From Waddliaceae bacterium (GTDB lineage Bacteria > Chlamydiota > Chlamydiia > Chlamydiales > SLFE01): DNA of 64,000 bases. The DNA is taken from NCBI GenBank assembly GCA_963783885.1, contig CAWAPJ010000012.1, forward strand, positions 31,781-95,780. The letters run 5' to 3'. This document shows, one piece after another, positions 15,625 to 46,550 of this stretch (position 1 is its first letter; the number at the start of each line of letters is the position of its first letter). The notes beneath the pieces were generated by a model, which saw nothing but the letters and a program-made list of their open reading frames with translations, searched no databases and had not been told where the DNA came from. A program made the translations under genes and the position numbers.

Positions 15625-16515
15625 TTATGCTGCATATTTAAACTCCCAGTTTTGGCGAGCTTCTCTAGGGCTGCAGTAGCCTAGCTTCTCAAGTAACCAT
15701 TCATTGTTATAATCCTCTACAAATGACTGAATGGCTCGTCTGACCTCATCAAGATTTTTAAAAACTCGACCATGCACACATTGCTCCTTCATCGTTCGAT
15801 GAAATCGCTCTTCCACCCCGTTGGTTTCAGGCTCGCCTACTAAGGCATAGCTAAAGTTAAAGCCCCAGTATTTAGCCTCATTCCGATACTCATTGGCTGT
15901 GAAGACCGATCCATGATCTGGTCTTAGACTGATCCCTCTAGCGATACCTGGCATTAGCTCTCCGCAACCAGACCTTACAGCATTTCGTAACACCTCCATC
16001 GCAGCGTGTCGATCGCCACGTTTGGTGACGTGCCACCCAAGACACTCGGAATTCCAGTGGTCAGTGACACCGAAGTACCAAATCCATCCATCATCCTCGG
16101 TCCAGATCTTTACTGCATCTGTTGCCCACATATCGTTGGGAACATCTGTCACGATTCTGCCATCATGTTTTTTTGCCTTTCCTTGGAAACTGCGATGTGG
16201 AGATAGAATATTAGCCTCTCTCATAAGTTTCAAAATCCTGTTTCTCCCTACGCTGATCCCATGATTCCGCCTCAATCGAGCCCATACTTTCCGGTGTCCT
16301 TCGCCCGTAAACTTACTCTCTTCAATATCACTACGAATCCACTCAAGGAGGTCTTCATCAGCCATCCAAGGAGTGGGTCCCGGCTTTCTTGTAACGGTGT
16401 CTTTTTGCTTTCTTGCTCTTGCGTTGTAGACGGTTGAGCGAGTTATACCCCAAACCCGGCAGACTCGCTGTAATCCGTATACGCGTCCAGTTGATGAAGA
16501 GCTGGAGGTGCTCAT
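15625..16515 (-). CDS. IS OrfB DDE transposase (rve integrase core)
   Basis: WATD, DHGS.F, NG.EERFHRT.K. Confidence 0.92.
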   Translation of the reverse strand: MSTSSSSSTGRVYGLQRVCRVWGITRSTVYNARARKQKDTVTRKPGPTPWMADEDLLEWIRSDIEESKFTGEGHRKVWARLRRNHGISVGRNRILKLMREANILSPHRSFQGKAKKHDGRIVTDVPNDMWATDAVKIWTEDDGWIWYFGVTDHWNSECLGWHVTKRGDRHAAMEVLRNAVRSGCGELMPGIARGISLRPDHGSVFTANEYRNEAKYWGFNFSYALVGEPETNGVEERFHRTMKEQCVHGRVFKNLDEVRRAIQSFVEDYNNEWLLEKLGYCSPREARQNWEFKYAA

Positions 16516-16835
16516 TACTTCGACCTCCTCAATACTAAAGGGCCTTTCTTTTTTACCTGCCGTTTTAGTAGCTCATTTTCCATGGACAGCTCACCTATCT
16601 GCTCTTTAGCTCTGGCTAGCAAAGCGTCCTTTGGATCGTTTACCCTCTGCTTAAAGCCTTCCTCAAGGTGGACCAAAGCTTCCTCTCGCCACTCATTGAC
16701 GATATGGACAGCCACGCCTACGGCGCGGCTGACATCATCTATTGCCTCACCTCGGAAAAGCCGTAGTACAACCTCTGCTTTTCGTTTGGCGCTCCATCTC
16801 TTTACTGTCTTATCCGTACAATCTGTTGTTCTCAT
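16515..16835 (-). CDS. IS OrfA (HTH + coiled coil)
   Basis: RWSAKRKAEVVLRL; TAATG overlap with OrfB; A-AAA-AAG slippery site with an open -1 frame into OrfB. Confidence 0.88.
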   Translation of the reverse strand: MRTTDCTDKTVKRWSAKRKAEVVLRLFRGEAIDDVSRAVGVAVHIVNEWREEALVHLEEGFKQRVNDPKDALLARAKEQIGELSMENELLKRQVKKKGPLVLRRSK

Positions 16836-16919
16836 TGTGTTTCTCCTTGAAAACGATTGGGTATTTTACCCCAAATCAGTGTCCAAGTAAACTGGTGGCA
16901 TTATACCGCCTAGGCTATG

Positions 16920-17076
16920 ACCCTGATTGCTACCTAAACTTGTTGTTAAAATCTTTCGTTGGATTCAGATGCGTAGACTCGATTTGAAGGCAAGGGTAAT
17001 CCCTTGCCGATAATCGAGGCTTAGCAGATGAATTCAATGAAAGATTTTAACGACAAGTTTAGGTAGCAATCAGGGT
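16920..17076. mobile_element. 157-bp palindromic MITE of the IS982-family element
   Basis: Both ends are ACCCTGATTGCTACCTAAAC; the whole element folds back around GGCAAGGG-TAAT-CCCTTGCC; near-identical to 45341-45477. Confidence 0.88.
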
Positions 17077-17179
17077 CTCAGTATCATAAGCTCCATCTCC
17101 ATAGGTGTGCTTAACAGATTTCGGCATTGCTTCGAGAAGCTTTGGATATACTTCACAATCAGCAATTTTATTTTCAGTA

Positions 17180-44950: not shown

Positions 44951-45519
44951 AAAAACCTCCATTTTTGATCATAAGGGACTTATAATAAATCTTCTGATTA
45001 AATGCCAGCAATTTGCAAATTCAAAATAAACTAGAATCACACGCCGGATTTTTCAATCTCTTCCTTGTTGCCTAAAACCTTCACCTTCATAATGCGAACC
45101 ATATCATAGAAGGTGATTTTATACTTTGTTAGCGTCTGACTGAATGTTTTTTGGCTTCCAAAGTTACAGGATTGTTGCCAAAGCCAGTAAAGTCGGCGTC
45201 AAAACTAATACTCTGCGTAAAAAGTTCTTTAAATTAGCTGGTGCAAGGTTCGCCGTCCTGTTAATGACGTGGAGACCGAAGTAAACTTAGTGAATTTATG
45301 ATAATTAAATTAAATAAATTTTTTCACGGGAATGGCTGAGACCCTGATTGCTACCTAAACTTGTCGTTAAGGTCTTTCATTGAATTCAGATGCGTAGACT
45401 CGATTTGAAGGCAAGGGTAATCCCTTGCCGATAATCGAGGATTAGCAGATGAATTCAATGAAAGATTTTAACGGCAATAGACTCTGTGATACTTCCTTAG
45501 ACAAAAAAAGGGGTACATC

Positions 45520-46361
45520 ATGGAAACTTATGCAATAACCATTTATGTCATCAGCGAATAAGTCCTTCGAATTTTAGGGGTTAAAGACGATCCTCAATCT
45601 CAAATGTCCAATGCAGAAGTTATAACTTTTGCTAGTTTTATCAGCAAAATATTTTTCTTGTAACTATAAAATGTCCAGATATTTATGTAAAAGATTACGA
45701 TTATTCAGAGCTATTTTAAGCAATAGCCGGCTAAATCGCCGAATTCATAAAATTCCTTGGATTTGTTGGAACGCCATTTTTCCGTTTTTTAGCTCTATTT
45801 TTTAAGCAAATAAATAAAGATCAGGGTTTTGCTATAGACAGCTTTCCAGTTTCATGTTGTCAGAAAAATAGAATCGATAAACGGAAGGTTTTTCTAGAAC
45901 GAAGGTATTTAGGTTTCGCAGCTTCTAAAAAGCGTTACTTTTGCGGCATAAAAGTTCATATGATTGTGACGAGCGAAGGCAAGCCGGTTGAAGTTCTTTT
46001 CAAGCCAGGAGCAGTAAGCGATGTAAAGGTGCTCTGGGAAATGAAACTGGACATTCCACCAGATTCTAAACTTTATGCAGATGGTGCGTATAATTGCTTT
46101 GATTTAGAAGACATCTTGAAAGAAGAACAAATTACATTGCTTGCAAAACGGGGATGTAAAGCAAAGAATAGAGTCCGAACACCTATTGAAGAGAGGGAAA
46201 TCAGTAGCAAGCGACAGATTGTCGAGACGACATTTAGCTGTATAACAAATCTTTTTCCAAGAACTTTTAAGGTCTGCACTGAACAAGGCTTTTTGATAAA
46301 AGTATTCTGTGCAATTCTTGCCTATAGCGTTTCATTTTTATGCAATAGGGACCTTCGCTAG
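45520..46361 (+). pseudogene. IS982 transposase pseudogene
   Basis: In-frame TAA at 45559-45561 plus frameshifts before the intact C-terminal ORF 45960-46361. Confidence 0.88.
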
Positions 46362-46462
46362 AGCTTACACGAGCACACCATCTACTGCCTGTAGCGACTT
46401 GGCAAGGGATTACCCTTGCCGTCGACGCTACAGTTGTATCTGGCGCACTCGTGTAAGCTCTA
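46359..46462 (-). repeat. Long imperfect palindrome at the right end of IS982
   Basis: TAGAGCTTACACGAG...CTCGTGTAAGCTCTA with apex GGCAAGGG-ATTA-CCCTTGCC; CTAG at both boundaries. Confidence 0.88.
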
Positions 46463-46550
46463 GCTAAGGTTTAGGTAGCAATCAGGGTCTGAGATTTGTA
46501 CGCCATGCTTTTGGAAAACGGTCTTTTTTGATAGCATTATCTCTGGATAA

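Follow-up and report, generated by a model that had tools for sequence, protein, structure and literature searches.

Strand-specific hairpins form conserved parts of both ends of an IS982-family clade in environmental chlamydiae

The window, i.e., the whole 64,000-nucleotide stretch of DNA analysed here, contains a decayed copy of an IS982-family element at 45340‒46489 (Table 1). The earlier note had recognised this element but drew its bounds at 45341‒46488, one base too narrow on each side. The inverted repeat (IR), GACCCTGATTGCTACCTAAAC, starts with GAC and matches at 21/21 positions, and four matches are present in the window against none expected. An intact copy encodes a 279-aa transposase that scores 153.9 bits against NCBIfam NF033520, above the curated cut-off of 130, and is also matched by Pfam DDE_Tnp_1_3 and DDE_Tnp_1; the window copy itself is a pseudogene. 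The ends fall within the family ranges given in the main text of PMC7335449 (IRs of 11‒32 bp, AC near the tip, and duplications of 2‒10 bp). Most copies are flanked by 3-bp target duplications, which are variable, and the target is a loose palindrome, CC-NNN-GG. A protein search of the genome contigs with the transposase returned nine loci, all of which are chlamydial.

Table 1 Features of the element and of its short derivative in the window.
Feature	Position	Strand	Basis or remark
MITE of 159 bp: IR, L hairpin and IR' as one continuous palindrome	16919..17077	+	repeat match
Target-site duplication TGA, left copy	45337..45339	none	flanking sequence
Left IR, 21 bp	45340..45360	+	repeat match
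Left (L) hairpin	45361..45477	+	inward-reading strand folds best
AGAT, 5' arm of L hairpin; tandem G·A 2x2 loop with 45447‒45450	45388..45391	+	conserved across lineages
L apex stem-loop, GGCAAGGG-TAAT-CCCTTGCC	45410..45429	+	exact match
AGAT, 3' arm of L hairpin; tandem G·A loop partner of 45388‒45391	45447..45450	+	
TGTGAT, degraded -10-like hexamer (TATGAT in the intact copy)	45485..45490	+	
IS982-family transposase pseudogene	45520..46361	+	in-frame stop at codon 14, two +1 frameshifts
Right (R) hairpin	46352..46468	-	inward-reading strand folds best
AGAT, 3' arm of R hairpin, as read on -	46380..46383	-	
R apex stem-loop; identical to the L apex when read on -	46401..46420	-	
AGAT, 5' arm of R hairpin, as read on -	46438..46441	-	
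Right IR, 21 bp	46469..46489	-	
Target-site duplication TGA, right copy	46490..46492	none	

An imperfect hairpin of ~117 nt (~115 nt across the family) adjoins each IR, as the earlier note had proposed in describing structures of over 100 nt just inside both repeats. In the present element, the hairpins fill a leader of 179 nt and a tail of 127 nt, and the transposase stop codon (46359‒46361) sits within the base of the R hairpin. The 20-nt apex, said to be identical at the two ends in opposite orientations, indeed occurs exactly three times in the window (16989 on +, 45410 on +, and 46401 on -) and in none of 100 shuffles. The stems had been called unrelated, but the L and R stems can be aligned; their AGAT/AGAT loop and apex are shared, as is the general geometry.

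Each hairpin folds more stably on one strand, namely the one read inward from the adjacent terminus. In RNA folds computed on slightly wider stretches (45355‒45485 and 46350‒46470), the L hairpin reaches -72.2 kcal/mol on the + strand (z -12.2) and -55.2 kcal/mol on the - strand, while the R hairpin reaches -86.3 kcal/mol on the - strand (z -13.8) and -73.4 kcal/mol on the + strand. On the inward strand of the window copy, each stem has three G·T pairs and no A·C pair, and the helices are near-perfect if G·U is counted as a pair. Both the strand-specific wobbles and the inward folding preference claimed at the outset are thus present. The further claim that six substitutions separate the L hairpin from the copy at 16919‒17077, all exchanging Watson-Crick and G·U pairs, holds for the lower stem, where six sites differ in exactly this way on the + strand; a seventh differing site lies in an internal loop.

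The same architecture is retained in relatives with transposase identities of 55‒77% and 33‒39% (overall only 33‒77%): next to the IR comes a lower stem of 28 bp, followed by the AGAU/AGAU tandem G·A loop and then by the upper stem with its GC apex. Compensatory changes are found at 38 of 49 pairs in the L hairpin and 35 of 48 in the R hairpin. Paired cells amount to 93.5% (L) and 92.9% (R), compared with 33‒48% after sliding the partners, and the covariation scores of 0.576 (L) and 0.596 (R) are reached by none of 500 shuffles, which give 0.21 and 0.23. This covariation support is comparable to that of many curated RNA families. G·U pairs outnumber A·C pairs by 52 to 11 in 14 ends, and the inward strand is the more stable one at all 26 ends compared from 18 genomes (mean 17.8 kcal/mol; 117 versus 28 G·U pairs). 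Among five additional copies, four are inward-stable and one is a tie. Covariation and strand bias therefore both hold beyond the window. Of 151 genomes sampled from the phylum, 34 are matched by a covariance model built here, which also detects distant members.

Wherever the hairpins were found, they stand beside an IS982-type IR, and their base adjoins the IR in every lineage. They are hence not independent REP elements, although many of them sit in transposase-less, IS-derived MITEs. In every lineage, the L type precedes the 5' end of the transposase gene and the R type is at its 3' end, and no second IR is present; the nested insertion of an independent palindromic element was therefore rejected. 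These observations show that both hairpins are integral, conserved parts of the ends of an IS982 clade in environmental chlamydiae. The hairpins are under purifying selection for the fold of one strand, 5'->3' inward from the nearer terminus, as evidenced by the covariation across lineages, the inward excess of G·U over A·C at every end tested, the detection of distant members by a structure model, and the low rate of hairpin change in a derivative that lacks the transposase; the selection on a single-stranded fold suspected in the earlier note is thereby supported. A cruciform in duplex DNA does not fit as the selected form, since a transition that makes G·T on one strand makes A·C on the other and no strand bias would be predicted. 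One pattern match in another genome (G050, L082) has neither an IR nor a palindrome and is considered a chance hit.

The 159-bp element at 16919‒17077 is a MITE with identical IRs, one of 12 elements of 117‒161 bp in G000. It lacks a target duplication (TAT versus TCA), whereas most other copies have one. In the single-hairpin MITEs, one element end has been completed to an exact palindrome, and two copies have one arm replaced by the exact complement of its partner. Since arms are rewritten and palindromic single-hairpin MITEs exist, the DNA hairpin forms at some rate, which speaks against the RNA reading proposed below. Arm-complementing conversions (G000 C2:83629, G000 C16:22469, and the G079 MITE in L114), together with central deletions typical of unstable palindromes, would also be expected if the hairpins were non-functional DNA palindromes, that is, by-products of fold-back replication or nested insertion shaped by arm-to-arm conversion and mutational strand asymmetry. 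However, such conversion would remove the G·U pairs as well as the asymmetry of AGAT/AGAT, yet these features are conserved in 18 genomes, and unpaired loop positions are conserved as well. Neither a neutral palindrome nor a cruciform gives a reason for a mirrored strand bias, and transcription of the transposase gene would be expected to bias both ends in the same direction. We consider this neutral explanation highly improbable and disfavor it.

One MITE family comprises 15 copies in G057. Its two hairpins are 93.5% and 93.0% identical, whereas the spacer reaches 71.7% and the IR windows of the two ends 81‒82% (left IR, about 82%); the hairpins evolve about fourfold slower than the intervening spacer. 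Copies with 97‒99% identical hairpins have spacers of only 62‒77% identity, and hairpin similarity correlates only weakly with spacer similarity (0.31). The model matches 18 sites in G057 and 10 in G038, and no IS982 transposase was found in either assembly (E<=1e-5), in which unassembled IS copies are possible. Host use has been proposed for REP, ERIC, or Correia elements. By analogy, the slow hairpin evolution and the missing transposase match in G057 could reflect a domesticated host repeat, in which the hairpins, mainly as MITEs, are kept locus by locus as mRNA 3' ends, processing sites, or DNA-structural sites, with the IS being only their source. This reading draws on one MITE family in one genome, whereas the architecture occurs at both ends of autonomous copies over 33‒100% transposase identity with fixed 5' and 3' placement. 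Since the both-end architecture and the placement are kept, the module follows the element in its evolution, not the host, and host domestication appears quite improbable.

A TANNNT hexamer lies 145‒147 nt from the IR start in nine of nine L ends, with an ATG near position 180. Because of this position, the transposase mRNA probably starts downstream of the L hairpin. Only the 21-bp IR precedes the L hairpin, and the -10-like hexamer follows it; hence, the hairpin was rejected as a 5' UTR of the transposase, and an RNA containing the whole hairpin must start outside the element. A candidate promoter around the L apex, TTGAAG-N19-GATAAT, was also rejected, as this motif is poorly spaced and not kept in G149 or G089. 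A promoter scan of the intact copy gave three promoter-like sites against 2.8 expected, all on the - strand inside the open reading frame.

The hairpin is best read as a selected single-strand module; we lean towards RNA as its form, with single-stranded DNA (ssDNA) recognised during transposition or replication as a close rival. Tentatively, and with somewhat less than even confidence, we propose that the hairpins act as RNA made by read-in transcription and serve as insulating or processing hairpins. Whichever flank an RNA polymerase enters from, the first hairpin on its path would be transcribed in the well-paired version. The long helix may then be an orientation-specific barrier or processing site, through cleavage by a double-strand RNase or through blocking, and the upstream host transcript would thereby obtain a structured 3' end. 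The interior of the element would be isolated from outside transcription, which is sense to the transposase at the left end and antisense at the right. Such a module could limit the effect of an insertion on its neighbors and might for this reason be retained in transposase-less MITEs.

The near-perfect helices including G·U pairs favor the RNA reading, as does the size of the strand asymmetry, which is 13‒17 kcal/mol with RNA parameters and only 3.6‒4.6 of about 40 kcal/mol with DNA parameters. The kink-turn motif, in which tandem G·A pairs follow a 3-nt bulge, does not fit, as the G·A pairs here belong to a symmetric, bulge-free 2x2 loop. An RNase III processing hairpin, which is cleaved at a defined site in a helix of at least 20 bp, would be compatible in shape alone, with a 28-bp lower stem and internal loops. 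A precedent is the IS200 stem-loop, which terminates impinging transcripts, as cited in PMC3196728. On the other hand, neither hairpin is followed by a U-tract on the inward strand, as an intrinsic terminator would be, and a terminator scan gave three terminator-like sites against 1.3 expected, none of which suits the inward strand or is convincing. Insulation in particular is questioned by the MITEs, which have no transposase to insulate and yet conserve the hairpins, and by four of the 15 G057 copies that in our reading lie between divergent ORFs, where read-in is not expected.

The apex provides a further clue. Its stem, AAGGG/CCCTT, is invariant in the close clade and differs between distant clades, also where these come from a single host genus. 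Within an element, the two apexes are often alike, including the loop and a common T·T mismatch. The clade-specific apex and the match between the two ends suggest a reader encoded by the element, most simply the DNA-binding transposase. This apex, evolving in concert at both ends of the element, is consistent with an ssDNA module of the transposon end. In such a module, the inward strand, which is the non-transferred strand and the lagging-strand template for a fork entering from that side, would fold and present the apex and G·A loop to the transposase, coupling transposition to replication or helping an intermediate to replicate. The mirrored strand choice would suit forks from either end, the constant junction with the IR and the greater conservation of the hairpins than of the IR and spacer in the transposase-less family agree with it, the single-hairpin MITEs resemble hairpin-primed copying of the IR, and arm-to-arm conversions occur. 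However, besides the small asymmetry with DNA parameters, 4‒8 G·T pairs with almost no other mismatches are the usual pattern of RNA, and we know of no DDE transposase that reads folded ssDNA. Copies with a deleted R hairpin retain intact 278-aa reading frames and some relatives have no hairpin; since these persist, the hairpin is accessory, not essential. The transposase-less assemblies of G057 and G038 indicate that conservation there may not concern mobility. We regard the ssDNA module as somewhat improbable, though close behind the RNA reading. A stronger version, in which the hairpins are an obligatory single-stranded cofactor of the DDE transposase, seems unlikely; here, the folded strand beside each IR would be read through its apex and tandem G·A loop, either as ssDNA (the lagging-strand template or non-transferred strand) or as nascent read-in RNA, and transposition would be gated by the entering polymerase. 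If true, it would be the first structure- and strand-specific end recognition in the IS4/IS5-like DDE world.

The element resembles other IS982 members in its NF033520-type DDE transposase, size of about 1 kb, AC at IR positions 2‒3, and short duplication. In the 70-member table of the family review (Fayad et al. 2020, PMC7335449), typical leaders are about 90‒120 nt and tails about 10‒25 nt, too short for such hairpins at both ends, and the main text of this review makes no mention of palindromes, stems, or subterminal structures. In Rfam, no family reached its gathering threshold, the only hits being two plant miRNA-precursor models with 29.4 and 17.7 bits against 79 and 95, and neither Rfam nor the literature searched holds a counterpart. 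The feature looks functional and is, in these sources, undescribed for the IS982 family.

Hairpins just inside the ends are also known from the IS200/IS605 family, and those of IS608 are reported to be read as ssDNA (PMC3201880). That family has an HUH (Y1) transposase, no IRs, and both hairpins on the same strand, whereas the present element has a DDE transposase, IRs, and mirrored hairpins of about 115 nt on opposite strands. Integron attC sites and REP/RAYT hairpins likewise conserve structure over sequence, fold on a specific strand, and tolerate G·T pairs; they are read by tyrosine recombinases or HUH enzymes, and none is known to be associated with a DDE transposase. Correia/NEMIS and ERIC MITEs are small, multi-copy units with IS-like IRs that fold as a long RNA hairpin when co-transcribed, and Correia elements are reported to be processed by RNase III. 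The hairpin of these MITEs forms by pairing of the two IRs, whereas in the present family a separate internal hairpin with conserved non-Watson-Crick loops lies at each end and an autonomous parent is known. A structured non-coding module in a non-coding IS end is found in the bridge (seeker) RNAs of IS110/IS1111 (PMC11208160; bioRxiv 10.1101/2024.04.26.591405). Those elements have a DEDD recombinase and one RNA per element, with loops pairing with target and donor. A comparable guide was rejected on anatomy, as the loosely palindromic target and the variable duplications of the present element do not suggest guiding.

The IS982 family is widespread, and its mechanism and regulation are, to our knowledge, essentially unstudied. 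In a whole clade of it, both ends have a structured module that is strand-specific and deeply conserved. The module offers a clean test of RNA versus ssDNA structure in the workings of a DDE element. The hairpin can also serve as a marker for annotating IS982-derived MITEs, which are common in chlamydial genomes and currently invisible, and these MITEs provide a natural example of palindromic elements arising from a single IS end. The sequencing runs that contain window 45200‒46650 or part of it are 20 DNA metagenomes, with three more assigned by study only, and none is RNA. Among single-hairpin MITEs between co-directional ORFs of at least 100 aa, the well-folding strand is sense in three and antisense in ten (2:6 in G000 and 1:4 in G079 and G057 together), a split with p of about 0.09 (binomial) that is confounded with replication direction.

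The IS982 copy in the window is 96.1% identical to an intact copy of the same genome (G000; Cn denotes its contigs), from which it differs by 41 mismatches, four single-base insertions and an in-frame stop at codon 14. Since the protein of the intact copy reaches 153.9 bits with the NCBIfam IS982 model (cut-off 130), the family named in the earlier note is right. A hairpin of about 117 nt lies inside each inverted repeat (IR), hereafter L on the transposase 5′ side and R on the 3′ side. Folded as RNA in slightly wider stretches (45355-45485 and 46350-46470), each is more stable on the inward strand, which reads 5′ to 3′ into the element from its nearer end, with all z-scores below -10. Read inward, the two ends have the same 20-nt apex stem-loop, as the note had stated. 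Its view of the stems as unrelated does not hold: aligned, they share AGAT on both arms (a 2×2 tandem G·A loop), a purine-rich internal loop under the apex, the apex itself and equal lengths. The note had also counted six substitutions between the L hairpin and its short copy at 16919-17077, all exchanging Watson-Crick for G·U pairs; this is correct on the + strand for all six lower-stem differences, but seven sites differ in total.

Features of the IS982 family in the window and elsewhere in G000 (MITE, transposase-less miniature derivative; IR', opposite inverted repeat)
Feature	Location	Description
Window element	45340-46489	1150 bp; perfect 21-bp IRs; 3-bp target duplication TGA; decayed transposase gene
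L hairpin	window 45361-45477	-72.2 kcal/mol on +, -55.2 on -
R hairpin	window 46352-46468	-86.3 kcal/mol on -, -73.4 on +
Third apex copy	window 16989	
Intact copy	C4:1152-2297	1146 bp; 279-aa protein, element positions 180-1019
IR + L hairpin + IR' MITE	including window 16919-17077	4 copies
IR + R hairpin + IR' MITE		5 copies, plus 1 with central deletion
Chimeric MITE	C1:93450-93607; C5:72963-73120	2 copies; outer R arm + one apex + outer L arm
Facing IR pairs	C29:111555-111595; C35:3811-3857	41 and 47 bp in total; IRs 0 or 5 bp apart
Uninterrupted site	window 17090-17112	CTCCATCTCCATAGGTGTGCTT
IS982 copies flanked by the halves of that site	C6:40377-41471; C28:22408-23037	TCCATCTCCATA / ATAGGTGTGCTT
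Adjacent ORFs beside the MITE	window 15625-16835 (-)	296 and 106 aa
IS982 copy holding ORFs of equal lengths	C5:63387-66032	2646 bp

The strand preference is general. In a uniform test of 26 element ends from 18 genomes, distant ones included, the inward strand is more stable at every end, by 17.8 kcal/mol on average (sd 6.7), and G·U pairs number 117 in inward and 28 in outward folds (23 ends have more of them inward, three have equal numbers and none has fewer). Both the strand claim of the earlier note and the G·U bias it had proposed to check are thereby borne out. This count leaves out near-duplicates (G075, G001_L, the window copy, the second G089 copy), two G064 ends truncated by contig edges, the G212 copies and all MITEs, for which "inward" is undefined. 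Of five extra copies folded, four favour the inward strand; a decayed G212 copy is tied at -42.6 kcal/mol and, folded with its flanks, favours the outward strand (-60.0 vs -52.1). When each of eight lineages is represented once (14 ends), the inward strand carries 52 G·U against 11 A·C pairs, and G·U exceeds A·C at each end. Among the unique variants within G000, seven turn a Watson-Crick pair into G·U and four into A·C; in the lower stem the numbers are five and zero.

Transposase matches at E ≤ 1e-20 occur in 35 of 301 sampled genomes of the order (G000 counted), and the named records matching it in the collection scan are without exception chlamydial MAGs or a Parachlamydiaceae isolate. Elements with 55-77% identical transposases (G235, G147, G075, G149, G048, G274, G091 and G089) share one layout: an L-type hairpin precedes the transposase and an R-type hairpin follows it, despite quite different stem sequences. 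RNAalifold predicts 49 pairs for ten L ends and 48 for ten R ends, with compensatory change in 38 and 35, respectively, so the covariation sought in the earlier note is present. In these structures 93.5% (L) and 92.9% (R) of cells are paired, compared with 33-48% after shifting partners by 1-3 columns; cell counts overstate independent events because the rows include near-duplicates (three from G000/G001; G147 with G075). The covariation scores of 0.576 (L) and 0.596 (R), against 0.21 and 0.23 in shuffles, are reached by none of 500 shuffles.

On sliding-window folding, mirrored hairpins also appear in IS982 relatives with no more than 33-39% identity (G275, a second G001 element, G037), in which AGAT/AGAT is kept and the apex sequences differ; in eight other distant relatives no window reaches -50 kcal/mol. 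A covariance model built from 16 close-clade hairpins, IR left out, recovers distant members and others outside its training set (e.g., G275 at 75.9 bits, G229 at 63, G099 at 53), including G037 on mirrored strands (38.4 and 34.0 bits). With up to 24 candidates scored per genome, it matches at E ≤ 0.001 in at least 34 of 151 genomes sampled across the phylum, G000 counted, and, among the candidates scored, in none of 23 genomes of a genus with 1.0-1.2 Mb genomes. All 12 new loci inspected have an IS982-like IR directly upstream; seven are single-hairpin MITEs and five extend inwards as part of a longer element. A strict sequence pattern for the hairpin core matches in 8 of 401 genomes of the order, the G050 match being a chance one, and the reversed pattern used as control gives one match in total.

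In the G000 assembly (2.16 Mb, 46 contigs, 88.9% complete), the apex has 53 matches (≤2 mismatches) and the IR 85 (≤3 mismatches); IR pairing yields 17 elements above 1 kb, 12 of 117-161 bp and three more of 630, 47 and 41 bp. Apart from two that contig starts interrupt, all apexes have an IR at a distance of 48-51 nt, so that the hairpins are not free-standing repeats outside IS982 ends, a possibility the first reading had raised. Reading frames in the long copies are of 279 aa in eight, 278 aa in two and 302 aa in one.

The palindromes leave traces in DNA. The short elements are of three kinds. Both single-hairpin kinds are continuous palindromes running through the IRs, with only the 21-bp IR from the opposite IS end, which looks more like copying of the IR from one side of a folded hairpin's base to the other than like an internal deletion. 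The chimeras, in which the long hairpin cannot form, read as deletions between the two apexes, the whole interior being lost by recombination. Six long copies have lost the R hairpin partly or wholly, two of them by essentially one deletion. At C2:83629 (L end), C16:22469 (R end) and locus L114 (G079), one arm has become a perfect complement of its partner, the G·U pairs are gone and one AGAT has turned into ATCT, which supports templated repair within a strand or template switching at the DNA level. Such deletion and rewriting are DNA-level behaviour typical of palindromes. The facing IR pairs are probably MITEs minus their deleted palindromic centre.

A transposase-less family in another genome, G057 (loci L151-L166), separates hairpin from gene. 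Its non-coding elements of about 385 bp are built of two mirrored hairpins with a spacer of about 110 bp between them and an IR at either end, and at least 15 diverged copies exist. In an alignment of 15, mean pairwise identity is 93.5% and 93.0% in the hairpins, 82.3% in the exact left IR and 71.7%, plus indels, in the spacer, which has diverged 4.2 times as much as the hairpins; copy pairs with 97-99% identical hairpins have spacers just 62-77% identical. Unpaired loop columns are conserved too, and G·U to A·C cells stand at 83:17 and 62:7. The IS982 transposase has no match at E ≤ 1e-5 in the G057 or G038 assemblies (96% and 95% complete, where unassembled IS copies are possible). Purifying selection therefore acts on the hairpins even in the absence of a transposase gene that they could control; that they are non-functional palindromes is very improbable, and a repeat domesticated by the host is only slightly less so.

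Selection acts on the fold of one strand, namely the one that a polymerase coming in from the nearer flank would make, as RNA, or expose, as lagging-strand template. We lean tentatively, and short of even confidence, towards hairpins that would act as RNA, since the helices are near-perfect when G·U is counted as a pair, the strand asymmetry is large in RNA terms and shrinks to 3.6 (L) and 4.6 (R) kcal/mol with DNA energy parameters, the conserved non-Watson-Crick loops belong to types often seen in RNA, and an intact transposase frame does without the hairpins, which some relatives lack. The hairpin could then be an orientation-specific barrier to, or processing site for, read-in transcripts; IS200 offers a precedent (PMC3196728). 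A single-stranded DNA hairpin read by the transposase is a somewhat less probable rival. It would better suit hairpins that adjoin the IRs and an apex that is specific to each element and changes jointly at its L and R ends. Also in its favour, the fold-back products show that a DNA hairpin does form, and insulating a transposase gene leaves the conservation in MITEs unexplained.

Several known identities were rejected. No Rfam family is matched by the hairpins; no U-tract follows them as in an intrinsic terminator, and no bulge marks a kink-turn. An IS200/IS605-type end is incompatible with a DDE transposase, IRs and hairpins on opposite strands, and a duplex cruciform would not account for the mirrored strand bias. 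The L hairpin is not the transposase 5′ UTR, since only the IR lies upstream and a TANNNT hexamer lies at position 145-147, about 30 nt ahead of the ATG in nine of nine L ends.

Full-text literature searches on IS982, chlamydial MITEs and IS subterminal hairpins yielded no description of such hairpins. The main text of an IS982 review with 70 members in its table (PMC7335449) does not mention end structures, on which its supplements might bear; by its ORF coordinates, almost no member has room for such hairpins at both ends, and the table entry ISPasp3 (Parachlamydia, 952 bp) is possibly a relative without hairpins. A paper on a Cardinium IS982-derived MITE (PMC9769881), supplements aside, has no "hairpin", "stem" or "secondary structure", and its single "palindrom" refers to inverted repeats.

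Insertions in G000 lie mostly in CC|NNN|GG with the 3-bp NNN duplicated, as in G075, G149 and G089, a pattern that marks a palindromic target preference at the sites compared. Unlike most copies, the window MITE at 16919-17077 has no target duplication (left TAT, right TCA) and may reflect rearrangement or recombination. Close to it, the window carries an uninterrupted form of the flanks of the C6 and C28 copies, so the IS had inserted into a repeated sequence; alternatively, these two copies are duplicates of one locus. The ORF pair adjoining this MITE, matched by length alone to ORFs within the 2646-bp copy, is probably a second IS family nesting into an IS982 element.
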